From Flavobacteriales bacterium (GTDB lineage Bacteria > Bacteroidota > Bacteroidia > NS11-12g > UBA9320), in contig JACJZU010000001.1 of assembly GCA_020635435.1 (NCBI GenBank), positions 361,450-425,449 on the forward strand: 64,000 nucleotides of DNA. Direction: 5' to 3'. The notes below the pieces were generated by a model, which was given only the letters and a program-made list of their open reading frames with translations, was not told the DNA's origin and searched no databases. Positions 5,801 through 37,510 of the stretch are shown one piece after another. The translations under genes were made by a program, and so were the position numbers. The first letter of the stretch is position 1. Each line of letters begins with the position of its first letter.

Positions 5801-6312
5801 CCGTCAAGCACTTCAACCTGCATGGCTTCATTACCGGTGGCGACGATACTTGAACTTTTTACAAAGCCGTAATGCTCGGAGAAGGTCCACATATAACTGA
5901 AAACCAGACCCAGATCGTGATTCTCTTCCTCGAAAAGTACTTTGTTGCCCGTCGCATTTTTAAGAATGTTCCGGGTGATCGTGAAATATTCATCTCCGAT
6001 AGTTGAAAAGGGCTCCCAGATCTTCAGTTTACCTGCTTCGTTGAAACGCACCAAAGTCCTGTTACCGGTTATCCCGGCCATTTCCAGGATCATATCGTCG
6101 GTATAATAAGGGAACAAGGCCGACTCGGCATTCTTTCTACCCGCAGTAAGCCCCCCATTGCTTCCAATGAACATCCAATGATCGCCTGAGCTCACCAGGG
6201 TCATCAAGAAAGGACGCATACCGGCACAGTCCGGTATCTTGTAGAATATTTCGCCATCTAACCGTACGATCTCCAGTTCACGGCTATTGATTTTTGCTTC
6301 GCTCATCTTCAA
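2884..6312 (-). CDS. Probable GH149 beta-1,3-glucan phosphorylase (cytoplasmic)
   Basis: 1142 aa, no signal peptide. Motifs HWMFIGSNGGLTAGRK, RRHGDPSRPWN, NYEGNWRDIFQNWEAL, DGYNPYRI, YEGLGSIYWHMVSKL and GAQQPGMTGQVKED match GH149 as I recall them; beta-glucanase neighbours support the call. Confidence 0.82.
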   Translation of the reverse strand: MKMSEAKINSRELEIVRLDGEIFYKIPDCAGMRPFLMTLVSSGDHWMFIGSNGGLTAGRKNAESALFPYYTDDMILEMAGITGNRTLVRFNEAGKLKIWEPFSTIGDEYFTITRNILKNATGNKVLFEEENHDLGLVFSYMWTFSEHYGFVKSSSIVATGNEAMQVEVLDGVSNILPSGVPSQLQLQRSTLVDAYKRNELDVDSGLAMYALSSMIIDKAEPSEALLATTAWMCGADVKEYLVSMKQVKAFRQGAHVHTETDVMAEKGAFLNLLNLDLKPGERRQWHQVFDVNCSHSDIHNLRKLLKEPDLEARLLADIETSGRALRELVAMSDGMQLGSDVLSTARHYSNVLFNIMRGGLFDEEYIIHRSELLEHVRHANHTVFLRNRAFWDGLEPESELGVLLAKARENGDPDVIRLCYEYLPLYFSRRHGDPSRPWNYFSIETRDAQGNKLRNYEGNWRDIFQNWEALAYSFPEFTESFVVRFLNASTLDGYNPYRISKDGIDWEVEEEDDPWSYIGYWGDHQIIYFLKLFELSTRFHPDRLLHLLNKPFFVYANVPYRIRSYHDLVQDPRNTILFDRDLDHLIRARVEQVGADGKLVWDEDGEPLRANLGEKLMVMLCAKLSNFIPRAGIWLNTQRPEWNDANNALVGNGVSVVTLCYLRRFVKQLFQFLRDSGTETIAFNRPVAQMIVALEEVFARHIGLLAEHMDDRARRVMVDDLGAVGEQYRALAYAGLTGRVDEIRIEKILSLLELVLRFCDDTIQHNKRKDGLYHSYNLLSLQGEKAAVRHLYEMLEGQVAVLSSGLLSAEESLYLLDSLKSSAMYRPDQYSYMLYPNRRLPGMLEKNTIPMEFSETCPLLEQLAEAGDVRLVERDENGIFHFSAGIHNADDIRLTLETLEQEGWTRQVFDHGEKVVELFEQMFDHSAFTGRSGTFFGYEGLGSIYWHMVSKLLLAVQETIHRAERQGINPEIFGRLVEHYYEIRAGIGVNKTPELYGAFPTDAYSHTPMHAGAQQPGMTGQVKEDVINRWAELGIHIEKGCLQFDPRILRKKEFLEAPSQFSYYSLGSEWRTMLVESGSLAFTFCQTPIVYKQSERSYIVLHEPGGEERSIEGNALNEADSRSIFLRNGQIEWVEVHCAPHL

Positions 6313-6318
6313 CTTTGA

Positions 6319-7848
6319 CTATTTAAATTGATCGTTCAGTACAATTGTTTGTATGCTTTGCGCATCCATACGGGAAGCGACAATTTTTCCATTGATCTCA
6401 ATTTCAATTTGTTCCGGTTTCTCGCTCATATTGAGCACGACCACGACAATTTCTCCACCCGGATTGCGCACCGCTGTGCTCATCAGCCGGTCTGAACTTT
6501 GTTCAATCCCAACCCTTTGCGCGCCCGGTTCAATGAATTTGCTGAAATGTGCCATGATGTAGTAAAGCGGGGTAAAATATGCCTCGTTCGAGGCAGTGTC
6601 TACAATGACCGGAGCCGTACACCAATTCTTAGCGTGATTTGGCCCCCCCTGCCGATCGAGTATCATATTCCAATCCACCCAACCCTCTACATGGCTATTC
6701 AAACAACCAATAATATCCCGTGCATAGCGATATACCGGCACATATTTCGGATGATCCTTTTTCAGGTGTTCCGGAGCCCAATCCCAACCCCAATCCGTGG
6801 CCTCTTTTTTCCAATACCAGGCATCGTCTTTCCATTTGGGGACCTCTGCATCTACACAGCCCTCCGTGTGCAGGATGTGCTTTTCGGGTCCAAGACTTTT
6901 CACATGATCCAGATTCTCAGGCATCCAGTTAGTAGTATTGCTGTACCAATGTACGGCCGTACCGTAGATCGCACTTCGTACCGCGCTGTCCTTGAGCAAA
7001 ATCTCCGACCATTTGATCAATTCTTCATCGCGGTTCTGGTCATAGACCAGGATCTTGGATGATACACCAGCCTGTTTCAGTTCCGGGGCCAGATACCGAA
7101 CCACAAAATCGGCAGTTTCTTCAGGTGTATAGTGCATGGACTCCCAATGCGAATCGTTGCCTAATGGTTCATTTTCTACCGTAAATGCCCAGATATCAAT
7201 GCCTTCTTGTTTCATTTCCAAGGCATAACGGGTAAAAAAACGAGCCCAGCTCGGATAATATTCCTTCAGAAGCTTCCCCCCAAACCATGCCTGGTTATCC
7301 TTCATCCAGGGAGGCGCTGTCCAGGGCGATGCGATCACCTTAAAACCTCGTTTGGAAACACCCTGGGCCATTTTTATCATAGGAATGATGTCGCCCCGGT
7401 CTTCATCCAGAGAAAATGAATTCAGCTGCGTGTCGCCCTCCAGCGGGACATAACTGTATGACCTCAATGAAAAATCACAACTGTTCATGTGCGTTCGGGT
7501 AAGGCTGTAGCGGGCACCATCATCTCCGAAATAGGCTTCAATGATCTCTTTCCGCAATTGCGGATCCAGGGCAAATAACAGATGTGCTGAGGATTCTGTA
7601 AAAGCACCTCCAAAACCGGTGATCTGCTGATAGACTTCAGTTGTATCCAAAATGATCCTCAACACCTCTTTTAGATCAGATGCCCGGCTTGTCGAAGTAA
7701 TTAACTTCAACTTATCGCCGGAAGCCGATGTTTGATAAATGCGGTATCCGGTTTCAGCACCATGCGGAGCGCGAACACATCCAAATCCCGCTAAAATGCT
7801 GAGAAACAGGATGATGGCAACAAGACCTGCATCCCTATTTCCGCTCAT
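6319..7848 (-). CDS. GH30 glycoside hydrolase lipoprotein (glucosylceramidase-like; probable beta-1,6-debranching glucosidase)
   Basis: GFGGAFTE, RTHMNSCDFS, SPWTAPPWMK, VENEP (acid/base), HTEGC (nucleophile), DWNMILD. Lipobox-like AGFGC. Start moved to the ATG at 7848 (ORF track starts at 7884). Confidence 0.9.
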   Translation of the reverse strand: MSGNRDAGLVAIILFLSILAGFGCVRAPHGAETGYRIYQTSASGDKLKLITSTSRASDLKEVLRIILDTTEVYQQITGFGGAFTESSAHLLFALDPQLRKEIIEAYFGDDGARYSLTRTHMNSCDFSLRSYSYVPLEGDTQLNSFSLDEDRGDIIPMIKMAQGVSKRGFKVIASPWTAPPWMKDNQAWFGGKLLKEYYPSWARFFTRYALEMKQEGIDIWAFTVENEPLGNDSHWESMHYTPEETADFVVRYLAPELKQAGVSSKILVYDQNRDEELIKWSEILLKDSAVRSAIYGTAVHWYSNTTNWMPENLDHVKSLGPEKHILHTEGCVDAEVPKWKDDAWYWKKEATDWGWDWAPEHLKKDHPKYVPVYRYARDIIGCLNSHVEGWVDWNMILDRQGGPNHAKNWCTAPVIVDTASNEAYFTPLYYIMAHFSKFIEPGAQRVGIEQSSDRLMSTAVRNPGGEIVVVVLNMSEKPEQIEIEINGKIVASRMDAQSIQTIVLNDQFK

Positions 7849-9091
7849 AAACACGCACGTGGTCCACGATAAATTCCTGCTCACTTATGTCTGGGTCTAT
7901 GCCTTTTGCACCACCCCAACCTCCTCCTACAGCCAGATTCAAGATAATATTCTGCGCTTTGTGGAATGGCCATTCCAGGGTATCCGCATTCTTATCATAG
8001 GTATAGTAACGCTTCCCATCAACCGATCCATAGATCACGTCCGGATACCATTCCACCGAATAGGTATGGAACGAATCGCGCATATGATGCACTACCGTAT
8101 CGGCACCGATCTGATTTCCCTGCTTAAAATAATAACTTCGGGTATGGCAAGTCGCATGATTGATCCCGTGTCCGGTCTCCGGATCCATCTCAAAACCGAC
8201 AGATTCCAATACATCGATCTCCCCACAATAGGGCCACGAGATCTCGTCGCGGTAAGAATCACCCAACAACCAACCGGCAGTCCAGGTACCACGTCCGCCC
8301 GGGATCTTAGCCCGGAATTCGATCTTGCCGTAGGTGAAAGAAACCTTACCCTGAGTCGTGAGCCGGGCCGAAGTCCAGGAACCGGTATTAGCGTCCTTTA
8401 CCGCCCCTATTCTCAATACACCGTTCTCAACCCGTACATTCTGTGTATCCGCAAGTGTATAATACTGAAGTTCGTTATTTCCCCAACCCCAGTTTCCTAC
8501 ATTATATGCCCACTTGTTACTATCCGGCAATCCGGAACCATCAAATTCGTCGCTCCATTTTAATTGCCATTCCGTGCCATCCATGTTCTGGATCTGATTG
8601 GTAGGTGTGGTCTTGTGCGCGTGCATCAGTTCAAGGTGTATGGATCTTAACAAGACCCGATCACGCTCGGCATGGATTCGAATGTTGTGTTTGCCTTTTT
8701 GAAGCGGAGAACCATCTATGTTTGATCCGTCCTCGTTGAAAAGCATATTACCGGTTATGTTGTACGTGCGCCCATCGGTATTATGAACGTAATCCTCTAG
8801 CCATATAAACCCCGAATCGGAACTTCCGGCAACACGCACTCGATACCTTCCGCTAACCGGAACATCCAATTCATATTCCGCCCAGGAACCGGGTGTCATT
8901 TCAAGAGCATCCTGTTCTACCCGGATGTCGCCTTCTATAGCCAAATGCTCAGAGAGTTTGAAAACCAGTCCTTGAACCGACCCTTCTCTATTGCTCTTGC
9001 ACGAAACAACCGAAAGCACCAAAAGGAGGGATGCAAACGGCATGATCGACCGGGTATATCTGCTGATGGATACCTGAAATTTCTGCATCAT
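7835..9091 (-). CDS. GH16 endo-beta-1,3-glucanase (laminarinase type) lipoprotein with N-terminal CBM-like module
   Basis: WSDEFDG, WGNNELQYYT, WPYCGEIDVLE (E-x-D-x-x-E), LNLAVGGGWGG; lipobox VVSC. Confidence 0.92.
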   Translation of the reverse strand: MMQKFQVSISRYTRSIMPFASLLLVLSVVSCKSNREGSVQGLVFKLSEHLAIEGDIRVEQDALEMTPGSWAEYELDVPVSGRYRVRVAGSSDSGFIWLEDYVHNTDGRTYNITGNMLFNEDGSNIDGSPLQKGKHNIRIHAERDRVLLRSIHLELMHAHKTTPTNQIQNMDGTEWQLKWSDEFDGSGLPDSNKWAYNVGNWGWGNNELQYYTLADTQNVRVENGVLRIGAVKDANTGSWTSARLTTQGKVSFTYGKIEFRAKIPGGRGTWTAGWLLGDSYRDEISWPYCGEIDVLESVGFEMDPETGHGINHATCHTRSYYFKQGNQIGADTVVHHMRDSFHTYSVEWYPDVIYGSVDGKRYYTYDKNADTLEWPFHKAQNIILNLAVGGGWGGAKGIDPDISEQEFIVDHVRVYERK

Positions 9092-9097
9092 CCGACC

Positions 9098-10660
9098 TTA
9101 GCTACCTACAAGGGTCTCTTCGAGTTCTTCCAGCGACTTACCCTTGGTCTCGGGTACAACGCGGATAATAAAGATCAACCCGATCGCTGCGAACAATGCA
9201 TATAGGGCAAATGTCCCGGCATTACCGAGTACCTGCAACTCATATGGGAACACCCATTGAACCACGAAACTCACCGCCGAGTTGATCAGCCCCACGAAGG
9301 AAATAGCAACCCCACGGATCGCATTCGGGAATAACTCCGAGAACAACACCCACATAACCGGACCGATCGATATGGCAAAACAGGCCACAAAACCCAGTAT
9401 ACCACTGAGGATCAGGATCGGGTTGGTGGAAATGGCAGCTGCTATGATCTCGGAAGAATGGGTAGACAACTCTTCGGCAGATAAAACCTTGGAGAGTGCC
9501 TCGTTGAATTGCAGGTCGCTTTCGAAAGTGCGATCTGCGATCGAGGCCAGTCGTTCCACCGGAACGGTGCCGGAGAGTGCCTCAAGAGATTCACTGCTGA
9601 GCGTGTAACTCGATGAATGGAAACCGTATGCGAGCAGAAATAGGCTCAGTGCCATACCGCCCACTCCAAATACGAGCAATGGCTTGCGCCCCAAACGATC
9701 GATGAATAATAAAGCAAGTATGGTAAATACCAGGTTCGTCAAGCCTACCATGATAGCCTGAATGAAAGAAGCATCCGTCCCAATTCCGGACTGTTCAAAG
9801 ATCATTGGAGCATAAAAGAACACAGAATTGATACCTGTGATCTGTTGGAGGATGGCAACCACAATACCAATGGATAATACCAAACGCATACGCTTCGTGA
9901 ATAGGTCGCGCACCCCGTGAGAAACTTCCTCAACCTTGGTTTCCATGCTCTCGCGGATCTCGTTTACGGCACGGTTCGCTTCGTTTATAGACGATAAGCG
10001 GGCAAGCACTTGTTTGGCTTCATCGAAACGCCCTTTTAGAATGAGCCACCTCGGACTGCGCGGAACGAAGAACAAACCGGCGTAATAGAGAACAGCGGGA
10101 ATGGTCTCTAAACCAAGCATCCAACGCCAGTTGTATTCGTTGAATTTCAGTTTCAACGCCCAGGGGGCATCACTTTTACCCAACTGCAGGATCAAATAGT
10201 TCGTAAAAAAGGCCAGTGAAATACCGATCACAATATTGAGTTGGTTGAAAGAAACCAGGCGACCCCGCATAGCAGGTGGTGCCAGCTCGGCAATGTACAT
10301 AGGCGCCAGTATCAGTGAAGCCCCTACCCCGAAGCCCCCGATCATTCGGGCAATTACCAAGGCAAGAAAAGTTGGAGCGAGTGCGGACGTGATCGCAGAA
10401 ACGGCATATAGGATCGCCGCATAGCGCAATACAGTACGCCTGCCAAACCGATCACTGATCGGACCGGCCACCATCATGGCCAAAGTGGAGGTGAGCGTGA
10501 GTGACGCCACCGACCAACCCAATTCAAGTTTCGTGAGTCCGAACTCGGGCTCGATGAATTTCACTACACCCGATATAACGGATGCATCAAATCCCATCAA
10601 TAAGCCCCCAAGTGCAACGATGAGAGCGATCAACATGACCACCGGATTACTGTTTTTCAT
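9098..10660 (-). CDS. MFS sugar porter
   Basis: GGLLMGFDASVISG, DRFGRR, PMYIAELAP, PRSPRWL, QQITGIN, DRLGRKPL, PETKGKSLEE. Confidence 0.95.
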   Translation of the reverse strand: MKNSNPVVMLIALIVALGGLLMGFDASVISGVVKFIEPEFGLTKLELGWSVASLTLTSTLAMMVAGPISDRFGRRTVLRYAAILYAVSAITSALAPTFLALVIARMIGGFGVGASLILAPMYIAELAPPAMRGRLVSFNQLNIVIGISLAFFTNYLILQLGKSDAPWALKLKFNEYNWRWMLGLETIPAVLYYAGLFFVPRSPRWLILKGRFDEAKQVLARLSSINEANRAVNEIRESMETKVEEVSHGVRDLFTKRMRLVLSIGIVVAILQQITGINSVFFYAPMIFEQSGIGTDASFIQAIMVGLTNLVFTILALLFIDRLGRKPLLVFGVGGMALSLFLLAYGFHSSSYTLSSESLEALSGTVPVERLASIADRTFESDLQFNEALSKVLSAEELSTHSSEIIAAAISTNPILILSGILGFVACFAISIGPVMWVLFSELFPNAIRGVAISFVGLINSAVSFVVQWVFPYELQVLGNAGTFALYALFAAIGLIFIIRVVPETKGKSLEELEETLVGS

Positions 10661-10825: not shown

Positions 10826-11563
10826 ATGATCAACAATAAGTTCGGTTCTGTAGATCATTTCCTATCTGAAAACAACCTCCCTTTCGAGGATTTTTTCAGA
10901 TTCGGATTGTCGGTGGACTGCGTGATCTTTGGTTATCACCATGGTACGCTCAAGGTACTGCTCATTCAACGCGGGGCTGATCCGTTCAAATACCAATGGG
11001 CCATCCCCGGAGATCTGGTGAGCCCTGAAGAAGATCTCGATTCCTCTGCCGAACGTATTCTCCAACATCTAACCGGGTTGAAGGATATATATGTAGAGCA
11101 ATTTCACACCTTCGGACAACGGGATCGACACCCGGCCGGTCGAGTTGTAACAGTTGGTTATTTTGCTTTGGTGGAAAGTGAGAAATACCAACCGGTTGCC
11201 TCCCATTGGGCATCCGACATCGGTTGGTTCGATATTCGGAACATTCCGCCCCTGGCTTTTGACCACGACGATATTCTCGCCAAGGGAATCGAATTCCTGC
11301 GTAAAAAAGTCCGAACCGAACCGGTTGTGTTCAATTTGCTTCCGCCCAAATTCACCTTACTGGATATTCAGGGTCTGTACGAAGCACTATTGCTCGAAAA
11401 ATTCGACAAACCAAACTTCCGGAAGAAGATATTGAGCACCGGTGTACTTGTTCCCCTCGATGAGGTTCAAACCAATGTAGCCCACCGGCCCGCCAAACTC
11501 TTTCGCTTTGATCAGGAACGCTATGATACACTTAAAGGAAACACGATCAATTTTGAACTGTAA
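10826..11563 (+). CDS. NUDIX-wHTH transcriptional regulator (NrtR/AraR/XylR-like)
   Basis: SVDCVIFG..LKVLLIQR..WAIPG, degenerate NUDIX box, LAFDHDDIL, LLPPKFTL, NFRKKIL, HRPAKLFRF. ATG at 10826 preferred (ORF track starts at 10814). Confidence 0.92.
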   Translation: MINNKFGSVDHFLSENNLPFEDFFRFGLSVDCVIFGYHHGTLKVLLIQRGADPFKYQWAIPGDLVSPEEDLDSSAERILQHLTGLKDIYVEQFHTFGQRDRHPAGRVVTVGYFALVESEKYQPVASHWASDIGWFDIRNIPPLAFDHDDILAKGIEFLRKKVRTEPVVFNLLPPKFTLLDIQGLYEALLLEKFDKPNFRKKILSTGVLVPLDEVQTNVAHRPAKLFRFDQERYDTLKGNTINFEL

Positions 11564-12881
11564 CAGATACATAGGCAGCCTCATCATTGCTGTACTCAGC
11601 TTTTGCGCTTCGGCTCAACCTATAAAAGTGGAAGTCGTTCAGACCAATTCGGGGTATCAACTTCTTCGTGACGGGAAGCCCTATTATATTTTGGGAGCCG
11701 GAGGACAGGTGCATCTGGATGAACTCATCGAATGTGGTGGAAATTCCATCCGCACATGGAGTCTTGAAAACGCTCAGAAGTACCTGGATGAAGCACATAA
11801 ATACGGGCTAACCGTGACCATGGGACTCTGGGTTCAGCACGAAAGGCATGGATTCAATTACGACGATGAGATCGCCGTTAAGAAACAACTCGATTATTTC
11901 ACCCGTAAAGTAAAGGAATTCAAAGATCACCCGGCCTTACTCATGTGGGGGATCGGCAATGAGGTCGATCTGTTCTACAGCAATACCAAGGTTTGGAAAG
12001 CCATCCAGGACATAGCCAAAATGATCCACGAAGTTGACCCCAATCACCCGACCTGCACGGTGACTGCCGGTTTGGACCCCAAAGAGGTCGCTTTGGTGAT
12101 GCGCGATGCGCCGGATATTGATATCTATGGGATAAACACCTACGGTGAATTGAAACTCGCCGTAGACAGCATCGATCATTTCGGCTGGAAAGGGCCTTAC
12201 CTGATCGCCGAATGGGGTCCAGATGGTCACTGGGAGGTTCCCCTCACCAAATGGGGTGCTCCCATCGAGCAAAGTAGCAGTTCGAAAGCAAAGAGCTATG
12301 CCAAAAGATACCAATTGATACGCGCAGAGCCGAATTGTATCGGCTCCTACGTATTTCTTTGGGGGCACAAGCAGGAAACAACGGCAACCTGGTACGGCCT
12401 GTTCACGGCCGATGGCAGCAGTACCGCTCCGGTCGACGAATTGTACAAGGCCTGGAGGAATACAGCCCCGCCGAATTCATCCCCGGCCATCGAGAATTTC
12501 GGCATTCAACGGAACGGTCAACCCGTTCCCGATAACATCCTCACCTCCGGCGCCCGATTCTCCGCCTTTGCCAATTTTACCGATCCCGACAACGATGCGT
12601 TGAAATACTCCTGGGAGATCATCTCCGAAAGTACCGATACCAAGGCCGGTGGCGATGCAGAGAGCGCCCCTCCCGCCATTCCGGGGCTTATTAAGAAAAG
12701 GACTAAAGGGGCCATCGAATTCAAGGCACCTAAAAAAGAAGGAGCATACCGACTCTTCATATCCGCGAGCGACGGAAAAGGGAAAGTCGGTTACACCAAT
12801 ATACCTTTCTATGTGAGTCCCGACCTCAACAAACGCCAGGGAGTTAAACTAAAAGAACGTCAACTGGACTTCAGCTACTGA
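11508..12881 (+). CDS. Clan GH-A TIM-barrel glycoside hydrolase (GH2_C-like, possibly GH158 beta-1,3-glucanase) with C-terminal Ig-like domain
   Basis: GGNSIRTW, HPALLMWGIGNE (acid/base), GINTYG, YLIAEWG (nucleophile), YVFLWG; signal peptide ending ASA|Q. True start uncertain, possibly TTG at 11553. Confidence 0.72.
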   Translation: MIRNAMIHLKETRSILNCNRYIGSLIIAVLSFCASAQPIKVEVVQTNSGYQLLRDGKPYYILGAGGQVHLDELIECGGNSIRTWSLENAQKYLDEAHKYGLTVTMGLWVQHERHGFNYDDEIAVKKQLDYFTRKVKEFKDHPALLMWGIGNEVDLFYSNTKVWKAIQDIAKMIHEVDPNHPTCTVTAGLDPKEVALVMRDAPDIDIYGINTYGELKLAVDSIDHFGWKGPYLIAEWGPDGHWEVPLTKWGAPIEQSSSSKAKSYAKRYQLIRAEPNCIGSYVFLWGHKQETTATWYGLFTADGSSTAPVDELYKAWRNTAPPNSSPAIENFGIQRNGQPVPDNILTSGARFSAFANFTDPDNDALKYSWEIISESTDTKAGGDAESAPPAIPGLIKKRTKGAIEFKAPKKEGAYRLFISASDGKGKVGYTNIPFYVSPDLNKRQGVKLKERQLDFSY

Positions 12882-12883
12882 TC

Positions 12884-14521
12884 GTGTTCAACAAACTCCA
12901 CATAATCGATTTGAGCGTACTTGGACTGTACTTCCTCGCTGTGTTCGGAGTAGCCCTTTTCTTTTTCCTTCAGCGCAAGGATCGAAAGGAGGATAATGCC
13001 ACAGATGATTACTTCCTGGGTGGACGAGACCTGAGTTGGTGGGTCATTGGTGCATCCCTGTTTGCATCGAATATCGGATCCGAACATCTCATTGGTTTGG
13101 CAGGTGCCGGTGCGTCCGGAAATTTCGCCGCCGGTCAGATCGAAATTCTCGCCGCGTTCATGTTGTTACTGCTCGGCTGGTTCTTCGTTCCATTCTATCT
13201 GAAAAGCGGCGTTTACACGATGCCCGAATTCCTCGAACGCCGTTACGATCCATGGGCCAGAAATTACCTGAGCTGGGTATCCATAGCAGCATACGTACTC
13301 ACCAAAATTTCAGTGACCATAGCCGCCGGTGCCATTGTATTCAAAACCTTGCTGGGGATCGATTTTTGGTCCGGAGCACTCCTCATCGTTGCCCTGACAG
13401 GTCTCTACACAGTATTGGGTGGTTTGAAAGTGGTAGTCTACACAGACTTTGTCCAAATGCTCATCCTTGTTGTCGGATCTATCGCATTAACGTACTTCAG
13501 TTTGCACAAACTCGGTGGATGGGGTGAATTGGTTGCCCGAACTAAACCGAGCGACCTGAGCCTCTGGCGTGGCGCCTCGCACGCAGACTTTCCATGGACG
13601 GGCATAATTCTCGGGGCCCCGATCCTCGGCGTTTGGTATTGGTGTACCGATCAGTTCATCGTTCAGCGAGTTCTGGCAGGGAAGGATCTCAACCACGCCC
13701 GTGTCGGAACTATCTTCGGCGGTTTTTTAAAGCTATTACCTCTCTTCCTTTTCGTTCTTCCCGGAGTAATTGCTCTTGCTCTTTCTCAAGGCGACTCGGC
13801 ATCGATGCAATTCCCGAACAAAGCGGACGGATCTCCCAATTACGATGCCGCATTACCCCTGCTCACCATGTCGGTTCTGCCTATCGGATTCAAGGGACTC
13901 GTAATTGCAGGCCTGCTCGCAGCGCTTATGAGTTCTTTGTCGTCCGTGTTCAACTCGTGCAGTACACTGTTCACCATGGACATTTACAACAAGTGGGTTC
14001 CCGATGCATCTCAACGGCACTTGGTTCGGGTTGGTCAGGTTGCAACTGTAATTCTCGTGCTTCTGGGCGTTGCCTGGATCCCCTTCATGCAATTCATTAA
14101 AGGAGGTCTTTTCCAAAAATTGCAGAGTGTTCAGGCTTATATATCTCCCCCTATCGCCGCGGCATTTTTATTCGGGATATTGAGTAAGCGGGTAACTTCC
14201 AAAGCAGTTAAGATCGCCTTACTCACCGGAGCCTTTTTAGGAGTGGCGCGGCTCACCTTGGAAGTTGCGCAGATCGAACTTTCCGGGCCGCTATACGCCT
14301 TTGCTTCGATCAATTTCCTGCATTTTGCATTTCTGCTTTTTGTGTTCTGCAGCTTGATCCTCTTCTCATTTTCCAGAACCTCCGAAGAGAAACCACACCA
14401 TGAAATTGCCGATATTACCTGGAAGAAACGCAGACTTGCGTCGATTCCCCTAAATGGGAATACGATCTTATCTGCACTGTTATTTCTAGCCGTTCTAACA
14501 CTTTGGATAGCCTTTAAATGA
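12884..14521 (+). CDS. Sodium:solute symporter (SGLT-like sugar transporter)
   Basis: YFLGGR, SLFASNIGSEHLIGLAG, TMPEFLERRY, YWCTDQFIVQR, SSLSSVFNS; many TM helices; GTG start. Confidence 0.95.
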   Translation: MFNKLHIIDLSVLGLYFLAVFGVALFFFLQRKDRKEDNATDDYFLGGRDLSWWVIGASLFASNIGSEHLIGLAGAGASGNFAAGQIEILAAFMLLLLGWFFVPFYLKSGVYTMPEFLERRYDPWARNYLSWVSIAAYVLTKISVTIAAGAIVFKTLLGIDFWSGALLIVALTGLYTVLGGLKVVVYTDFVQMLILVVGSIALTYFSLHKLGGWGELVARTKPSDLSLWRGASHADFPWTGIILGAPILGVWYWCTDQFIVQRVLAGKDLNHARVGTIFGGFLKLLPLFLFVLPGVIALALSQGDSASMQFPNKADGSPNYDAALPLLTMSVLPIGFKGLVIAGLLAALMSSLSSVFNSCSTLFTMDIYNKWVPDASQRHLVRVGQVATVILVLLGVAWIPFMQFIKGGLFQKLQSVQAYISPPIAAAFLFGILSKRVTSKAVKIALLTGAFLGVARLTLEVAQIELSGPLYAFASINFLHFAFLLFVFCSLILFSFSRTSEEKPHHEIADITWKKRRLASIPLNGNTILSALLFLAVLTLWIAFK

Positions 14522-16491
14522 AAAGAACCGTACTATTTATAATCTGCATCTGCTGCCTCCTTTTATCCGCTTGGGCGCAACAGAAACCGTTCCCTCCGAC
14601 GGTCACCCCGATGCCCCAGTCCGAAGGTCAGGATTCGATCAATTACCCGGATCTTGGCTTATTCCCGAAAAAACCGGATCCGGTGCTCTATACTTTCAAA
14701 GTTGGAGGTACATACCGGTTCTTTGGAACCTATACCGTTCAAAAAGATCCATTCCTGATCAGCGAGGCCGGCAACGATACGGTGCTTCAGAAAAATGTGT
14801 TCATTGGCGACGATAGCCAGCTGCCAAACCTCACACTCAATTTCTCAGGTCGGCCCTCCGAACGAACATCCTGGGGATTCGATCTGTATGCATTTCAATT
14901 CCTCGACGGGCAGATCGGCCAAACCTATGGTAACGGCCAGGTTAAGCCGGCAAACCGTCCCAGCATTTATTCCCCGTTATCGGGAACCCGTATGGCCACT
15001 AATTTAGGACTCTTACTCGGGATCAATCTTTACGGGAATTTCCAAACAGATTTTGCATCAATAAGCGTGAAAACAGGAGGGATCCACTGGGTTTCCATTA
15101 GCGACCTTACCCTTCGGGCATTTACAGGCTATAACCGCTTCACTTTATTTGAACGAAATCCCTGGGATCCCGTTGTTAAAGATGTGGAATCCCGCTACAG
15201 CACATTTCAACAAGCCGGGGTGATCAATCAGGATATGCGCTGGGGCGAGCGGGCCTTTACCGGAACCATCGTGGAAATGTCGCAACTACCGGGCGATCTT
15301 ACACTAAAGGCCCTCTACGGTAAAACTGAATTGAACGGAGGTTTCCTTACCATACCTAATCTCTCGTTTGGAGGACAGCTCAAAAAAACGGTTCGATCCG
15401 GATTTGTGGCTATGAATACCTTCAACAACCAAACGTATACCGATAGTTTGAATACTGCCGGCATTGGGTTCAACATCGCCACGATCGAAGTGAGTCAACC
15501 CCTGGCCAAAGGCATCGAACTGCATTCGGAGATCGGAATGGGTCGGTACTTCAGTCCGGAGTTTGAAAACAATTGGGGAGAAGCCCTGAACCTGAAGCTG
15601 CATTTTACGGATGAGATCTCAAAGATCCCGGTGGAGCTGCACTATTTCAGAGTGAGTCCTCGCGTTCTGAACAACAACGCCCTATTCTGGAACACAGCCA
15701 TTGTAGAAACACGGAACAATACGATCCCGGCCGGCGTGGTTGGCAGCAGCGCACTGCTCTTCCCTTTTGCGAGCTCTTTAACCGCCATCGGGCAATTCAC
15801 CAATAACCGACACGGACTCAACATCAACGCCGAGATCGGTAAGAAGAACGCAAAACTTTCCATCGCAAACGGCATCTCCGAGGAACTGGAGGCACTGAGC
15901 GACCAGATCAGCTTCGGACACCCGGTCAACCAGCTCACCCGATCGCGATTCTGGAGATGGAATTTCCCAACCGGAGTTGGACCTTACAACCGTTACAACG
16001 TGATTTTCCGCGACATCTACGAGATCGCCCGCATATCCGGCGGCCCGGTCGCCAAACGCTTTAATGTGATGGAAATTCAAGGGAAGTATAAGTCCCTGAT
16101 CGACCTTAAGAACTTTTACGCATTCCTCCTGTGCAGGTACTCCTCTGTACAGGATTTCCTCTCACCTATCACCGTTTTCTCCGAAAGAGCCTACCTGCGC
16201 CACTACAGCAGCGAGCTCGAGACCTATTACGCATTACACAAGAACCTCGTGTTGGCAACTTATACCGGATACGAACGCATACTCGCCAATTACGATACCG
16301 ATATCGACGATCTGAGTAACCGCCCCAGAAATCAGGAGGGTTGGGGTTTCGGACTCGGACTGGATTACGACTTCGCAAAGAACACAGCGCTTTACCTCCG
16401 ACATCGATGGTTCTCTTTTGAAGACCGAAATTTCATCAAGGACCGTGCAAGCGGTACCGAAACCATTGTAGAGATCAAATTAGCATTTTAA
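14518..16491 (+). CDS. Hypothetical outer-membrane beta-barrel protein A (657 aa, no TonB plug)
   Basis: Signal peptide ending AWA|Q, amphipathic strands throughout, C-terminal ETIVEIKLAF; no plug or carboxypeptidase-like domain recognisable. Confidence 0.65.
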   Translation: MKRTVLFIICICCLLLSAWAQQKPFPPTVTPMPQSEGQDSINYPDLGLFPKKPDPVLYTFKVGGTYRFFGTYTVQKDPFLISEAGNDTVLQKNVFIGDDSQLPNLTLNFSGRPSERTSWGFDLYAFQFLDGQIGQTYGNGQVKPANRPSIYSPLSGTRMATNLGLLLGINLYGNFQTDFASISVKTGGIHWVSISDLTLRAFTGYNRFTLFERNPWDPVVKDVESRYSTFQQAGVINQDMRWGERAFTGTIVEMSQLPGDLTLKALYGKTELNGGFLTIPNLSFGGQLKKTVRSGFVAMNTFNNQTYTDSLNTAGIGFNIATIEVSQPLAKGIELHSEIGMGRYFSPEFENNWGEALNLKLHFTDEISKIPVELHYFRVSPRVLNNNALFWNTAIVETRNNTIPAGVVGSSALLFPFASSLTAIGQFTNNRHGLNINAEIGKKNAKLSIANGISEELEALSDQISFGHPVNQLTRSRFWRWNFPTGVGPYNRYNVIFRDIYEIARISGGPVAKRFNVMEIQGKYKSLIDLKNFYAFLLCRYSSVQDFLSPITVFSERAYLRHYSSELETYYALHKNLVLATYTGYERILANYDTDIDDLSNRPRNQEGWGFGLGLDYDFAKNTALYLRHRWFSFEDRNFIKDRASGTETIVEIKLAF

Positions 16492-16495
16492 CCCC

Positions 16496-18211
16496 ATGAG
16501 AAACAGAATAGTACAAATAAGCCTTTCCGCATTGCTGCTCCTTGGATCCGCTGCCCTTGAAGTGGTGAAGGCGCAAAAAGTTTGGGCATCAGGTGCAGCT
16601 CGGAGCATATTCCAACAGAATAATCTGGATGTTGAAAACGACACTGTATCCCCACGAAAACTAAATAGTGGGCATGCCCTGGTGGATCTGGCGATCAACG
16701 CCCGCCCGAACGACCAAACCTTCCTGCATGCCATGGTCCGTATCCGAAATGATTTCGGAGGCTTCTGGGGATCGGGAGTGACCTTCGACATGAGGCAGTT
16801 ATACCTCAAAGGCCTGATCAAGAACGCTGTCCGCTATCAATTGGGTGATATCGATTACAAATTGAGCAAGTATACCTTCTTCAACAATCAGGAAGAACTT
16901 AGTGCGCAAAGAGCAGAAGCGCTGGAGATCTACAGGGAGATCACACACTACGATCTTTTCTATACGGCCAATAACACCTGGAGGCAGCAAGGCGCTGCTG
17001 TGGATTTCAGCCTGCTTTTCCCCGCAGCATTCGAAGAACTGCAAATGAACCTGTTTGCCTTCCGGAACCGACCTACCGACTTCGGTCAACAAAATGAGCG
17101 CATCTATTTCGGTGGTAACGGCACGCTTATCCAAAGCAGATCCCTGCAATTGGGCGCTAATTTCGTCGACATGATGGATCTGACCGGCACATCGAGAAAC
17201 CCGCAAAGCTTTCATAATCCGGTACTCAGCGGTACAACACAGATCGATCACGAGTGGTCCGATCACAGCATTCAGTTCAATTCGGAATCCGGAATTTCTG
17301 AAATGTATACCCTCAACGACCCGAATTCTCAAACGCTGAGAGACTATTTTATCGATGCTGAGCTGCGTTATGCCTGGAAAAAGAATAGTAAGTTCACAGT
17401 GAACTATATCAACGTAGGTCCCGATTTCAGAAGCGTTGGCGCTCAGAATAAACGCGTGAACTTCGAGGCCCAGAACCTCCTCTATACCCGGATCGGCAAC
17501 GAACAGCAGGTCAGACCCCTAACCCAGTTGGATCTGATGCAGGATGCATCTCTTTATCGAATGAACCTCAATACAAGTCTTCAGGTGTACGCACCTCAAT
17601 ACGACAACATCACACCTTTCGGGGCCGCTACTCCGAATCGCAAGGGACTCACCCTCAACGCGGCTCACGAAACAACCAATAAACTTCTCAACGCAAAAGC
17701 CCAATACCGGATGTTGAGCGAAGTGATCGGACAGGGAACTGAAGAACTGCGCAGCTTTACTTCCCTCATTCTATCCGTTTCCTTCAAATTAGACACTTTG
17801 CTACCTGCTTTTAACAAACCTCTGGAGATCAGTTTCGGTTATACAGATCAAAACACCTCAAGATCCAATGCCATTCCGGAGGCAACGATCGATCTGGGAT
17901 CATCGATCCTAGATCTGGGTTTGAAGATCGGTTTATTAGAGGAAATGGAACTGGTGGCCAACTTCCGAAGTATGAATGCGAGTGGAAACGAGATCATATC
18001 GGTGTGGGATAACTACAGTGAACTGGTCGATTACCAGATATTCAATACTGAAATGAAACAACAACTGCTGATCATAGCCTTGCGTTACCATTTCGACGAA
18101 CGAAATACCCTCAATGCTGTATGGCAAAATCTGAATTATTCCGACAGCACACAGCAGGCACCTGATTTCAACATCAAACAGTTCGGGATCGTTTACAGCA
18201 TGTTCTTTTAA
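16496..18211 (+). CDS. Hypothetical outer-membrane beta-barrel protein B (571 aa), apparent paralogue of A
   Basis: Signal peptide ending VKA|Q, amphipathic strands, C-terminal QFGIVYSMFF; collinear motif blocks shared with 14518-16491. Confidence 0.65.
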   Translation: MRNRIVQISLSALLLLGSAALEVVKAQKVWASGAARSIFQQNNLDVENDTVSPRKLNSGHALVDLAINARPNDQTFLHAMVRIRNDFGGFWGSGVTFDMRQLYLKGLIKNAVRYQLGDIDYKLSKYTFFNNQEELSAQRAEALEIYREITHYDLFYTANNTWRQQGAAVDFSLLFPAAFEELQMNLFAFRNRPTDFGQQNERIYFGGNGTLIQSRSLQLGANFVDMMDLTGTSRNPQSFHNPVLSGTTQIDHEWSDHSIQFNSESGISEMYTLNDPNSQTLRDYFIDAELRYAWKKNSKFTVNYINVGPDFRSVGAQNKRVNFEAQNLLYTRIGNEQQVRPLTQLDLMQDASLYRMNLNTSLQVYAPQYDNITPFGAATPNRKGLTLNAAHETTNKLLNAKAQYRMLSEVIGQGTEELRSFTSLILSVSFKLDTLLPAFNKPLEISFGYTDQNTSRSNAIPEATIDLGSSILDLGLKIGLLEEMELVANFRSMNASGNEIISVWDNYSELVDYQIFNTEMKQQLLIIALRYHFDERNTLNAVWQNLNYSDSTQQAPDFNIKQFGIVYSMFF

Positions 18212-18223
18212 TTTCTGCAAGCC

Positions 18224-19270
18224 ATGAAACAAACAATGACAAATTCAAGATCAACTTATTCAAGAGCATCCATCCGATCCTTGATACTGCTCGGTATATT
18301 CATTTTGGCGTTCACACAATGTACCAGAACCGAAGATCCGTTTGAAGGACCAAGCATGGCCGAGATCTACGGCGAATTCGCCATCATGGAAGATTTTGCC
18401 GCCAGTACAGCGAGCATTGATTTCTCCACCGGACAGGAAATGTATTTCACGGCACGTTTCAGTCGTATGACCTCCTGGAAGATCGAGATAACCTCCTCGG
18501 GTTCCGGAAGCCGCAAAATAATTGAGGGAAGATCGCGGGTACTCGATGCTTCGAATGCCAGTTGGGACGGCAGTACCACCGTTTTCCCTGTTTTCAAACC
18601 GGGGCAATGCACAGCCGTACTCACAGTTGAAGCCGACAGCTCCACGCACCAGGCCAGCGTGAATGTCACGGGCGGACTCATTCCCGGAGGCAAAGTTGTT
18701 TCCGACTTCGAAACTCCGATCGACCCTAAATGGACACTGTTTGTTCAAACCGGCGCCAACATGAGTTTTAAACCTGAAAGTAAAATAGCTGCTCCGGTTG
18801 GTGCACAATATTTCGACATGGGCGGTGCTGTGGCCTGGGACTGGCTCATTGGGCTGTTCCATGTTCCGCAATCGGCAATGGGAGCAGATGGATTTGACCT
18901 TCCTGAGAATGCCGATCAGGTCTATTTCAACGTCGTGCTCTATCGGCCTGACACGCTGCGTAACGGTTTCCTACTGTTTCGGTTCAGTGAGGATGAGAAC
19001 GGCGATGGCACGTTCACCGAGGCGAGCGAGGATCAATACGCCGTTGAAGTGCACGACATGGATCCGGGATGGAATATCGTTTCGTTCAAATACGCCGACC
19101 TGCAATACCTCATCAACGGATCGCCCGCCACACCTAAAGGTAATGGTGTGAAAAATCCGGATAAACTGAACATGTTATCGTGCCTGTTGCTGGCCGATCC
19201 AAGCAGCGGTTACGCACAAGTGCTGATGGACTATATGGTATTCACGATCGGGGAACCTTTAAAACTGTAA
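18224..19270 (+). CDS. Lipoprotein, putative surface glycan-binding protein (Ig-like plus CBM-like domain)
   Basis: Lipobox-like FTQC; jelly-roll-like C-terminal half (VSDFE, Trp-rich AWDWLIG, acidic loop DENGDGTF, GWNIVSFKYADL). Confidence 0.55.
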   Translation: MKQTMTNSRSTYSRASIRSLILLGIFILAFTQCTRTEDPFEGPSMAEIYGEFAIMEDFAASTASIDFSTGQEMYFTARFSRMTSWKIEITSSGSGSRKIIEGRSRVLDASNASWDGSTTVFPVFKPGQCTAVLTVEADSSTHQASVNVTGGLIPGGKVVSDFETPIDPKWTLFVQTGANMSFKPESKIAAPVGAQYFDMGGAVAWDWLIGLFHVPQSAMGADGFDLPENADQVYFNVVLYRPDTLRNGFLLFRFSEDENGDGTFTEASEDQYAVEVHDMDPGWNIVSFKYADLQYLINGSPATPKGNGVKNPDKLNMLSCLLLADPSSGYAQVLMDYMVFTIGEPLKL

Positions 19271-19271
19271 C

Positions 19272-20483
19272 ATGAGGCGTTTCGGATATATAGCATTATG
19301 TGTTCTCCTGGCCTCCTGTGTTGAATTCAAGAAGGTAGATATTTTCGATTCAGGTTCTCAAGCCCCTGTACCACCGCATATCGAGAACTTCTATGCCCTC
19401 AATGTACTTTCGGATCACCTGAGTGGAGAAGTCTGGTTCACCGAAGATGCAAAATGCATAGAAGTAAGAAATGAATCCCAAACGGTGTACTCCGGCGAGG
19501 GATCCCTGTACCTCAAGTGGAACAAAACAGATGGAGGCTGCGATTGGATCGGACTTGGAATAGGCTGGAATGGCTGGGCTTCGAAAGATATGAGCGCTGT
19601 TCTCAATAAAGCTGCGATCCGCTTCAAGGCCAAATCCAACTCCGGAAAGATCAATTCCCTTCCACTAGCTGTATCCCTGGAAGACTATGGTGGAAATGCC
19701 GCATGGCTCGGATTATTCCCTGAATTCATCACATACATCGATGGAGAAGATTGGGCCACAATTACACTGCCCCTGGAGCGTTTCGGCTGGAACGAATTCG
19801 GCGCCGATGCGTCCAACATCAAGCAAATGATCATTCAATTCGAAGCATCCGGTGAGTGTTTCATCGATGCCGTGAGCGTGGTTCCTTACGAAGGTCTTCG
19901 AAATGCAACGTACCGTGCTACCATAGTTCCACTCGATCGAATTGTGGTTGATGGCGAGCTTACCGATTGGAACGGTCTACCCCAAATGGACCTTGGCGAA
20001 CATAAGGTATCGATCTGTTCCGATTCGAAAATGCTCTATGTGAGCGGCTCAATCACCGATCCCACACCAATGTTGAATAGCAGATCGGGTAAGGAAGCCT
20101 GGAATGGTGATGCCATTGAATTGGCCATCGGTGTGAATCACGAAGCCGCCGGAGGACGGACCAAACTCCTCCTGAGTGATCGGCACTTCATACTTCGGGC
20201 CTCCAACAACCCTGAATTGTACGATGTTTCCAGAGACGGGATCAAAGTTCCGGGAGCTCTCACGAAGCTCGTTCGAAGTGAAGCCGGCTATCGCTTCGAA
20301 TTCGCCATTCCACTCACCTATTTCGGGTTGACGGCCTGGTCGAAAAATGCGGCATACCCGGTCGAAATTGCCGTGGATCTTGGGGATGAATCGGGACGAA
20401 AAACACAAGTGCGTTGGAATAGCCCAAACCGTGAAGGTTTTCATAACAATCCGTCGCTTTGGGGAAATCTGGTTTTTAATTGA
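19272..20483 (+). CDS. Lipoprotein with CBM30/CIA30-like and CBM9/DOMON-like domains
   Basis: Lipobox LASC; GGCDWIGLGIGW..WATITLPLERF..IKQMIIQFE; C-terminal IVVDGELTDW..GDAIELAI..YRFEFAIP. Confidence 0.65.
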   Translation: MRRFGYIALCVLLASCVEFKKVDIFDSGSQAPVPPHIENFYALNVLSDHLSGEVWFTEDAKCIEVRNESQTVYSGEGSLYLKWNKTDGGCDWIGLGIGWNGWASKDMSAVLNKAAIRFKAKSNSGKINSLPLAVSLEDYGGNAAWLGLFPEFITYIDGEDWATITLPLERFGWNEFGADASNIKQMIIQFEASGECFIDAVSVVPYEGLRNATYRATIVPLDRIVVDGELTDWNGLPQMDLGEHKVSICSDSKMLYVSGSITDPTPMLNSRSGKEAWNGDAIELAIGVNHEAAGGRTKLLLSDRHFILRASNNPELYDVSRDGIKVPGALTKLVRSEAGYRFEFAIPLTYFGLTAWSKNAAYPVEIAVDLGDESGRKTQVRWNSPNREGFHNNPSLWGNLVFN

Positions 20484-20494
20484 AATTTTCGATC

Positions 20495-21364
20495 ATGCAA
20501 TCTTCGGTAACACTCCATCGAACAACAATCAATACCCTGGTCTTTCTGCTTTTTGCTTTAGTAGGCTGCTATCAATCCGACCCCAGGCCTGCAAGCTTCA
20601 ATACAGACACGTTCGGTCGAATTGGCGATAGCGTTCGCTTTTCAGGCTTGGATTGGACCGTTAAGATCTATGAAGACGTGATGCACGGACCTGGTCCCAA
20701 TTATTTTTCGGGAGATGAACGCGATGTGTTCCTGGATGAAAATGGTTATCTGCACATGCGCATCGCCCAACACCAGGGCAAATGGATGAGCTCGGAAGTA
20801 GTTGCCGATGAACCCACAGGATATGGAACATACAGGTTTACTATTGAAGGTATGTTAGATGCTATTCCGGATAATATCGTTCTGGGTCTGTTCACTTGGG
20901 ATAACACCACCTTCCAGGAACAGGCCAATTCGGAAGTAGATATCGAATTCAGTAAATGGGGTGATGCAAATGCCAAGCGCACACTGCAATATGGCGTACA
21001 ACCGATCAATTTTGGTCCATACTATCCGGAACGTGATTTTGTGCCGGAATACGTCCCCGGAACAATGAATGGGGTGAGCGTTCATGAATTCACCTGGACC
21101 GACAAACTGATCACCTGGAGATCCTACGCAGGAGATCGGGTAGATCCGACGCGCTTGATCGGAGAATGGAGTTTCGATCAGAGCAACCCGGGTCGCGTGA
21201 AGAACGAAGGCGGTCGATCATCCAAACCAATTGTTATTCCGGCTCCCGGCAATGAAACGTCGGCCCGGATCAACTTCTGGATCCTGACCGGAATCGCACC
21301 CGGCCCCAAGGACAATGCACGGCACGAGGTCATCATCCGCAAATTCGAATATCTGCCTCTCTAG
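20495..21364 (+). CDS. GH16 lipoprotein with an E-x-D-x-E motif (no beta-bulge)
   Basis: GPGPNYFS, GYLHMRI, GYGTYRF, LGLFTWD, SEVDIEFSKWG; lipobox LVGC. ATG at 20495 preferred. Confidence 0.75.
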   Translation: MQSSVTLHRTTINTLVFLLFALVGCYQSDPRPASFNTDTFGRIGDSVRFSGLDWTVKIYEDVMHGPGPNYFSGDERDVFLDENGYLHMRIAQHQGKWMSSEVVADEPTGYGTYRFTIEGMLDAIPDNIVLGLFTWDNTTFQEQANSEVDIEFSKWGDANAKRTLQYGVQPINFGPYYPERDFVPEYVPGTMNGVSVHEFTWTDKLITWRSYAGDRVDPTRLIGEWSFDQSNPGRVKNEGGRSSKPIVIPAPGNETSARINFWILTGIAPGPKDNARHEVIIRKFEYLPL

Positions 21365-34542: not shown

Positions 34543-34956
34543 TTATTTATCGATCCAAACGCGATCCTGGCCCTTGAATTCGGGAGCCTGCACGCTTACG
34601 ACCTTCAGGGCCTTCCCCGAAAGGGTGCGAACGGAATGCGGTGTATTCACCGGAATGAGGATCAGGTCGCCTTTGCTGATGGTTCTGGTCTCGTCCCCGA
34701 TCTGCATGATGGCTTTCCCTTCAAGTACCACAATGGTTTCGGTGTGGTATTCATGCTTATGTAGTTTAACCTCTTTCTTTACCCATATCAGGAAGGTGCT
34801 CGACCGCTCGTCGCTGTGTATGCGCTCCACGTGGATGTTGTCGTAATCTTGAGGAGCTGTGCGTTTGGCACCGTCCCATACATCGGTCTGCGCTTTCAAA
34901 CCCAAACCGGTGAAAGAAAGGCAAAGCAGAACGGTCAGTCGTACAAATGCGGACAT
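34543..34956 (-). CDS. Exported cupin-domain protein
   Basis: LHKHEYHTE..VLEG..GDLILIP.NTPH metal-binding motif; signal peptide from the ATG at 34956, which overlaps the upstream stop (TAATG). Confidence 0.85.
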   Translation of the reverse strand: MSAFVRLTVLLCLSFTGLGLKAQTDVWDGAKRTAPQDYDNIHVERIHSDERSSTFLIWVKKEVKLHKHEYHTETIVVLEGKAIMQIGDETRTISKGDLILIPVNTPHSVRTLSGKALKVVSVQAPEFKGQDRVWIDK

Positions 34957-37373: not shown

Positions 37374-37510
37374 AGGAATAAGTTCAATTGGTTTTCCAAA
37401 AGTATGAAGGACTTTATGAGATGTTGTATTTATCGGAATTGTTAAATTTATGGTTTCGTCAAACGTTCGTCCATTTGCTCGGGGAGCTATTGCTATTTTT
37501 GCAACTCCTG

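Follow-up and report, generated by a model that had tools for sequence, protein, structure and literature searches.

The locus and its two barrel genes

The window analysed here is a 64,000-nucleotide stretch of a Flavobacteriales genome (GenBank assembly GCA_020635435.1, contig JACJZU010000001.1, positions 361,450 to 425,449 of the forward strand), and the subject of this work is a pair of neighbouring genes within it, encoding two putative outer-membrane beta-barrels, here termed A and B, in an operon for the use of the beta-1,3-glucan laminarin (Table 1). A preliminary description, made from the DNA alone, had presented the two as a candidate new pair of plug-less glycan porins, and the coordinates of the open reading frames (ORFs), as well as the signal peptide, N-terminal Gln and C-terminal Phe that it had assigned to both products, were exact when compared with the ORF list and the sequence. 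The hydrophobic leader of A (MKRTVLFIICICCLLLSAWA) ends in an Ala-x-Ala/Gln site, read as AWA/QQ, so that the mature protein starts with QQKPF and finishes with KLAF, while the hydrophobic leader of B (MRNRIVQISLSALLLLGSAALEVVKA) ends in VKA/QK, with a mature start of QKVWASG and a C-terminus of YSMFF; both cleavage sites were read from the sequence by eye rather than taken from a predictor. At the DNA level, the stop codon of the upstream sodium:solute symporter (SSS) gene overlaps the start of A (AAATGA), a 4-nt gap (CCCC) separates the stop codon of A (TAA) from the ATG of B, and 12 nt lie between the stop codon of B and the next ATG. The first two of these junctions are those described before, and the translational coupling that had been proposed from them is supported by a 1-nt stop/start overlap at the A/B junction in 64 of 79 related loci.

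The genes around the pair identify the region as a laminarin locus, as a GH158 and a GH16-like protein (GH, glycoside hydrolase) are encoded in the operon itself and an MFS transporter, GH16, GH30 and GH149 in a divergent catabolic arm, which is carried by related loci as well. The 294-amino acid (aa) lipoprotein at the end of the operon is probably, from its profile and position, a divergent GH16-like endo-glucanase (clan GH-B glucanase family): it carries EVDIEF, a catalytic motif of the GH16 type, it aligned weakly with the GH16 family of related loci (hhalign probability 88.7%, 53 columns), and in several of these loci (L017, L020-22, L026, L036) a canonical GH16 stands in its place. The two lipoproteins that follow B (P0005 and P0006) showed no relation to each other in hhalign. 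The regulator ORF that heads the operon shares 56 nt with the longest GH158 ORF; translation of GH158 more likely starts at an ATG a few codons further in (MIHLKE...), and the end of its leader (LSFC) is a possible lipobox.

Table 1. Genes of the laminarin locus and their positions in the window
Feature	Position	Strand	Remarks
Barrel A, CHU_1276-type	14518..16491	+	657 aa; signal peptide, mature N-terminal Gln, C-terminal Phe
Barrel B, CHU_1277-type	16496..18211	+	571 aa; signal peptide, mature N-terminal Gln, C-terminal Phe
Regulator, NrtR/AraR-type NUDIX-winged-helix	10814..11563	+	Operon head
GH158 endo-beta-1,3-glucanase	11508..12881	+	Signal or lipoprotein leader; PDB 9oro ('GH158') E 3.5e-99, 6pal E 6.8e-70
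Sodium:solute symporter (SSS), inner membrane	12884..14521	+	Pfam SSF 1.6e-84; optional operon member
Lipoprotein P0005, CHU_1278-type	18224..19270	+	348 aa; lipobox ...AFTQC; third invariant module member; no Pfam match
Carbohydrate-binding module (CBM) lipoprotein P0006	19272..20483	+	CBM9_1 4e-11, CBM30 1e-4, SGBP_B_XBD 3e-4; CBM30/SGBP-B xyloglucan-binding-domain-like, then CBM9-like
GH16-like lipoprotein	20480..21364	+	294 aa; EVDIEF motif; no Pfam match
Divergent catabolic arm	2884..10660	-	GH149, GH30, GH16, MFS
GH149 beta-1,3-oligosaccharide phosphorylase	2884-6312	-	PDB 6hq6, 1176 bits
GH30	6319-7884	-	
GH16	7835-9091	-	
MFS sugar transporter	9098-10660	-	

Predicted fold and absence of a plug

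Monomers of both proteins were modelled with AlphaFold2 using their family alignments, and strands were counted from the DSSP strings instead of the coordinates. Both models are all-beta barrels, with a predicted local distance difference test (pLDDT) of 75.4 and a predicted TM-score (pTM) of 0.74 for A, and a pLDDT of 86.9 and pTM of 0.82 for B. The barrel of B has 22 long strands that run from residue 28, just past the signal peptide, to the C-terminal Phe; every other strand connection is short (2–12 residues), as in periplasmic turns, and just two loops are long, L3 (118-165) and L7 (308-381). In A, about 22 strands were counted, matching the 22 of B once the two are aligned; a disordered extension of 38 residues precedes the barrel, which begins at residue 60 and has four long conserved loops, namely L2 (126-167), L3 (194-243), L7 (380-430) and L8 (457-513). 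The invariant residues of both families are concentrated in L3 and L7. In the A family alignment, the invariant motifs are FERNPWDP (L3) and NNRxG/NNRHG (L7), and in that of B they are GDIxYKLxxYT and ATPNRKG, with L7 carrying YDNxxPxGxATPNRKG.

No Pfam or NCBIfam family matched A or B above threshold; at the C-terminus of A there were sub-threshold Pfam contacts with generic barrel families only, and for B there were none at E ≤ 1. Foldseek against the PDB retrieved outer-membrane barrels alone at a probability of 1.0 for both proteins, MtrB and usher barrels being among them, with TM-scores ≤ 0.47. The best query-normalised scores of A (TMq 0.41-0.43) were to the 22-strand siderophore receptors PfeA and PirA. 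No close solved relative was thus found for either protein in the PDB by Foldseek, where the matches were generic barrels with TM < 0.5, and sequence profile searches of the PDB gave no match for A and one chance-level match for B (E 1.2). Pfam searches detected no plug or TonB-dependent receptor domain in A or B (nothing plug-like at E ≤ 1), and the TonB_dep_Rec and CarboxypepD_reg signals were likewise absent, as was a TonB box. When the plug family PF07715 was searched genome-wide, 27 other proteins were matched, and neither A nor B was among them. A and B are therefore, as far as the models and domain searches go, outer-membrane barrels without a plug, and the original reading of the pair as plug-less barrels without a recognisable TonB box or plug of a TonB-dependent transporter (TBDT) stands.

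Common origin of A and B

The relationship between the two barrels was invisible in a pairwise BLASTP comparison (best E 2.7), and alignment of narrow family profiles with hhalign reached 9.4%, yet already paired three central blocks out of the five collinear ones that had been pointed out by eye. A search of a library of 1.84 billion proteins with the A profile gave 324 representatives at E ≤ 1e-3, and a diverse A alignment of 77 sequences was used. With the hidden Markov model (HMM) of this alignment, members of the B family reached 29 bits at best, in collinear alignments of considerable length, and B sequences that had been reversed or shuffled stayed at or below 5 bits. Aligned with the B family in hhalign, the diverse A alignment reached 98.3% in local and 99.6% in global mode, end to end over 523 columns, and the control against a column-reversed B alignment reached 1.1%. 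All five blocks of the preliminary description were recovered by this independent profile-profile alignment. The similarity between A and B is consequently real but needs diverse homologues to become visible, given the null result of BLASTP and the rise from 9.4% with narrow to 98.3% with diverse profiles, and the alignments indicate that the two are true, very old paralogues.

A descent of the barrels from TBDTs was considered as well, using an alignment of the 27 plug-bearing proteins of the same genome. For A such an origin is unsupported (hhalign 1.2%, equal to the reversed control), and for B it is ambiguous (47.7%).

Homologues in Cytophaga hutchinsonii

Running the B profile across the order led to a cluster at 1.49 Mb in the genome of C. 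hutchinsonii (L101), made up of five co-oriented genes for proteins of 747, 606, 380, 375 and 598 aa. The fourth of these proteins has Y253, F256 and F343, which are the residues mutated in CHU_1279 (PMC12016534), and the fifth is a GH9, which identifies the five genes as chu_1276 to chu_1280. In the preliminary description, homology of A and B with CHU_1276 and CHU_1277 had been put forward as a hypothesis, and BLASTP confirmed it: A aligned with CHU_1276 over 654 columns with 26.6% identity (E 1.2e-47; 682 bits with the diverse A-superfamily profile), and B with CHU_1277 over 600 columns with 32.7% identity (E 2.4e-88; 417 bits with the B profile). The lipoprotein P0005 aligned with CHU_1278 (25.7% identity, 374 columns, E 1.3e-19), and P0006, which occupies the same gene position as CHU_1279, had no detectable sequence similarity to it. 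By these alignments, A and B are orthologous in kind to CHU_1276 and CHU_1277, respectively.

The products of chu_1276 and chu_1277 are outer-membrane proteins, each of them important for cellulose use, and CHU_1276 is a target regulated by an ECF (extracytoplasmic function) sigma factor; CHU_1278 is predicted to have a beta-sandwich fold, and the cluster, termed an 'atypical PUL' (polysaccharide utilization locus), was reported in three cellulolytic species, i.e., C. hutchinsonii and two close relatives (PMC12016534). The label 'new' that had been attached to the porin pair does not hold in view of this homology, which places it in a family genetically required for cellulose use. The pair instead represents a laminarin-directed form of a known module, one that has been validated genetically but is unsolved in its mechanism, and not a wholly new family.

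The two loci share the co-oriented order barrel, barrel, beta-sandwich lipoprotein, CBM-type protein and endo-glucanase, full-length homology of their first three members, and the motifs FERxPW and NNRxG (A type) and ATxNRKG (B type). They differ in substrate, which is beta-1,3-glucan in the window (GH158, GH16, GH30, GH149) and cellulose in C. hutchinsonii (GH9), and in regulator (NrtR-type vs. ECF sigma factor), and the locus in the window, unlike chu_1276 to chu_1280, also includes inner-membrane SSS/MFS carriers and a phosphorylase.

Conservation and distribution of the module

Relatives of A were searched for in 185,579 species genomes (one genome per species) and confirmed at 346 of 361 candidate places, a far wider spread than the two close cellulolytic relatives known for the C. 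hutchinsonii cluster (PMC12016534). In an even sample of the phylum the module was carried by 4 of 401 genomes, and in the order that contains C. hutchinsonii by 24 of 151. The gene order GH158-[SSS]-A-B-lipoprotein-CBM-(GH16-like or GH16) was found in all 84 parsed loci, being incomplete only at contig or locus ends. A and B occurred in this fixed order wherever both positions were covered, and neither was found alone where the sequence continued (84 + 4 + 8 + 3 loci); the sole locus with only A (L065) ends 48 bases past it. Directly 5' of A, we found GH158 in 49 of 76 related loci, the SSS gene in 26 and an MFS gene in one. This speaks against the coupling to the Na+ symporter that had been proposed for the pair, its invariant partners being each other and the CHU_1278-like lipoprotein. 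Neither a TBDT gene nor TonB/ExbBD genes were conserved in the 84 loci.

The module extends beyond laminarin loci and beyond close relatives. In a high-GC genome from another class of the phylum (L089, G344:C1:1268001-1288000), the order is A-B-lipoprotein-CBM30/SGBP-B-GH158-GH16-MFS, an occurrence that implies either inheritance from far back or a lateral transfer of the entire locus. More distant A-type proteins were always accompanied, directly downstream, by a B-type gene and a homologous counterpart of the 348-aa lipoprotein, their neighbours being GH18 and two glucosamine-6-phosphate deaminases (NagB; chitin type), GH5 or GH20, and the P0005 homologues of these chitin, GH5 and GH20 loci matched with E-values of 1e-8 to 1e-16. 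Eight A-B-lipoprotein triads were present in a complete 4.5-Mb genome (G440, loci L102-L109), with the lipoprotein in 8 of 8 and a second lipoprotein paralogue in four; the scan of neighbours covered six of the eight, of which four stand beside GH3, GH16, GH10/CE2/GH78-like genes or two alpha-1,3-glucanases, respectively, and two beside type IX secretion system (T9SS) cargo and sensor kinases. Another eight B-type genes were found in a Cytophagaceae metagenome-assembled genome (G401); G440 and G401 both belong to the order of C. hutchinsonii, and their eight copies each amount to a PUL-like multiplicity. In every case examined, homologues were located in carbohydrate loci. The identity matrices of A and B correlate with r = 0.79 over all loci and with r = 0.82 within the eight paralogous loci of G440, as would fit a joint duplication of the two genes.

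Several A-type barrels (P0285, P0295, P0297 and L104:6118-8463) carry an N-terminal CBM_4_9 domain of ~130 aa directly before strand 1 (Pfam E 3e-16 to 1e-8), a fusion that ties this barrel type directly to carbohydrate. Given a normal barrel topology, such a domain would be either periplasmic or within the barrel like a TBDT plug, and could be a carbohydrate-binding plug.

T9SS genes are frequent around the module. A T9SS-sorted protein with tandem binding-like modules (window 1425-2786) adjoins the locus studied here, and 14 or more of the 84 related loci have such a neighbour; in the loci with GH5 and GH20, too, the module has T9SS cargo genes on its flanks, as it does in several G440 loci, and one precedes the L089 cluster. 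A role of the barrels as T9SS anchors of the PorP/SprF type, raised by these neighbours, was dropped, since neither barrel matched a Pfam family of this kind.

SusD and TonB-dependent transporters in the host genome

The host assembly has a size of 2.89 Mb and is 79% complete. The SusD families PF07980 and PF14322 had no match anywhere in it, while the Bacteroides thetaiotaomicron control was positive; at this level of completeness the absence of SusD from the genome is not proven. One of the 27 TBDTs of the assembly is encoded within the window (ORF 34956-37595, minus strand).

Proposed function and alternative explanations

We consider it probable, on balance, that A and B together are the outer-membrane uptake unit of a SusC/SusD-free operon for beta-1,3-glucan (laminarin). 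In the mechanism that we envisage, GH158, the GH16-like protein and the two lipoproteins (CHU_1278-like and CBM) would bind laminarin and cleave it on the cell surface, after which the oligosaccharides would diffuse across the outer membrane via the two paralogous ~22-strand barrels, the plug-less lumens of which would be narrowed by the long conserved loops on the extracellular side (L3 and L7 of each barrel and, in A, also L2 and L8). Without a plug, a barrel of 22 strands would be an open hole of TBDT size, and the long loops, which add up to ~120 residues in B and ~200 in A and so come close to a TBDT plug in mass, probably fold inwards, so that a sugar-selective passage is left in the lumen. 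The barrels would be fed or capped by the beta-sandwich lipoproteins, periplasmic GH30 and GH16 would trim the oligosaccharides, SSS and/or MFS would carry them over the inner membrane, and GH149 would phosphorolyse them in the cytoplasm. We infer that the barrels act as the conduit, that A and B work as one heteromer together with the lipoproteins, that the passage is gated by the loops and that transport is independent of TonB; the heteromer and the TonB independence are held with less confidence than the role in uptake.

Several observations weigh against this view. The long loops of A were modelled with low confidence (pLDDT < 50 at 128-165, 205-216 and 405-415), so closure of its lumen is not readable from the model, and the 27 plug-bearing TBDTs of the host could in principle carry the sugars. 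The profile of B aligned with that of these TBDTs at 47.7% (reversed control 0.6%), an ambiguous value that leaves room for a remote TBDT origin. From C. hutchinsonii, the title cited for chu_1277 speaks of cellulose and cellooligosaccharide 'degradation' and not of uptake, and CHU_1279 is needed even with its binding residues mutated, both of which would fit a scaffold as well (PMC12016534).

Such a scaffold or assembly platform, in which A and B would anchor or surface-expose the lipoproteins and glucanases with no conduction of their own and sugars would enter via other porins or TBDTs, is in our opinion unlikely. Its models are LptD, which holds LptE, and MtrB, which sheathes MtrA/MtrC. 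It would account for a lipoprotein as the invariant third partner and for the MtrB and usher barrels among the structural matches, it has alternative routes at hand in the 27 TBDTs of the host, and it agrees with a CHU_1279 that is required physically and not for its binding activity, and that was suggested by the authors to stabilise CHU_1276/1277 (PMC12016534). It is at odds with the title cited for chu_1276, which names an involvement in glucose uptake (reference 23 of PMC12016534), and with the location of the module at the exact SusC/SusD position of its loci, also in a genome (79% complete) in which no SusD was found, as well as with the lack of any TBDT gene conserved among the 84 loci.

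We give even less weight to two independent specific porins, homo-oligomeric or monomeric, that would differ in the size or linkage they prefer (e.g., linear vs. branched) and be adjacent just for co-expression. The invariable company of A and B in every covered locus, their fixed order with mostly a 1-nt overlap, the lack of either barrel alone where the sequence continued, and the co-divergence of the two across the paralogous loci of one genome (r = 0.82) all speak against this reading, even if divergence beyond the reach of BLASTP, the different loop layouts (four long loops in A vs. two in B) and a separate mutant phenotype for each C. hutchinsonii homologue (PMC12016534) would be natural for separate channels. 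A non-canonical energised transporter, that is, a pair of remote plug-less TBDT derivatives with the plug provided in trans by a lipoprotein or in cis by CBM_4_9, and powered by TonB/ExbBD or another energy source, appears very improbable. The strand number (~22) is as in TBDTs, the highest scores of A were to PfeA and PirA, the profile of B gave an ambiguous 47.7% with that of TBDTs, and the CBM_4_9 fusions are of plug size; nonetheless, plug, TonB box and TonB_dep_Rec signal are missing from both barrels, A is no closer to TBDTs than its reversed control, and the loci conserve no TonB/ExbBD genes.

Beyond the uptake of laminarin, the A-B-lipoprotein triad may represent a second general, substrate-swappable and TonB-free glycan importer of Bacteroidota, parallel to SusC/SusD, in which the plug-less hetero-pair would be gated by its loops, by beta-sandwich lipoproteins or, in some cases, by a CBM_4_9 plug. 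This wider proposal is tentative, and we regard it as somewhat doubtful at present.

Comparison with other outer-membrane systems

SusC/SusD resembles the module in where it lies within a glycan locus and in what it presumably does there, in the ~22-strand barrel with adjoining genes for surface lipoproteins and glycan-binding proteins, and in being modular over substrates and multi-copy in some genomes. The differences are that SusC has a plug, a TonB box, TonB_dep_Rec and CarboxypepD_reg, all of which A and B lack, that two different paralogous barrels stand for the single SusC barrel, and that a SusD partner is missing both from the locus and from the host assembly, which is 79% complete. 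The partner lipoproteins have beta-sandwich CBM domains (P0006, Pfam) or a predicted beta-sandwich (CHU_1278, per PMC12016534) in place of SusD domains. LamB/ScrY and chitoporin embody the idea proposed for A and B, namely passive passage of specific oligosaccharides through a channel that is constricted by in-folded loops. These are, however, trimers of 16-18 strands and ~350-430 residues, as opposed to a ~22-strand hetero-pair with lipoproteins, and the similarity of LamB, ScrY and chitoporin to A and B (Foldseek TM 0.3-0.47) is no better than that of unrelated barrels, with no sequence similarity. In LptD/LptE and MtrB/MtrA/MtrC, a large plug-less barrel is likewise encoded with an obligatory lipoprotein partner that could fill or cap the lumen, but the functions are lipopolysaccharide insertion and electron transfer, and the resemblance is one of analogy alone, homology not being shown.

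Implications for glycan use in Bacteroidota

Laminarin ranks with the most abundant glycans in the sea, and glycan use by Bacteroidota is usually predicted from susC/susD pairs. The assembly studied here encodes a complete beta-1,3-glucan pathway without a SusD match (79% complete), built on the module that C. hutchinsonii requires for cellulose. Enzymes for at least seven glycan classes are encoded next to the same module, which occurs in as many as eight copies in a genome, a breadth that has apparently gone unrecognised in the literature searchable on CHU_1276/CHU_1277. In a study of blooms, co-localised genes for carbohydrate-active enzymes (CAZymes) without susCD were classed merely as 'CAZyme clusters' (PMC10108472). 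If the triad is indeed a second general importer, it would explain the use of laminarin by SusD-less aquatic Bacteroidota, and PUL surveys keyed to susC/susD would miss an entire class of loci; if the barrels are the conduit, they would constitute an unexplored route for oligosaccharides over the outer membrane without a TonB-driven plug. The full laminarin locus is also carried by a cultured strain, Phaeocystidibacter luteus LMG 25704 (L059), which makes bench testing possible.

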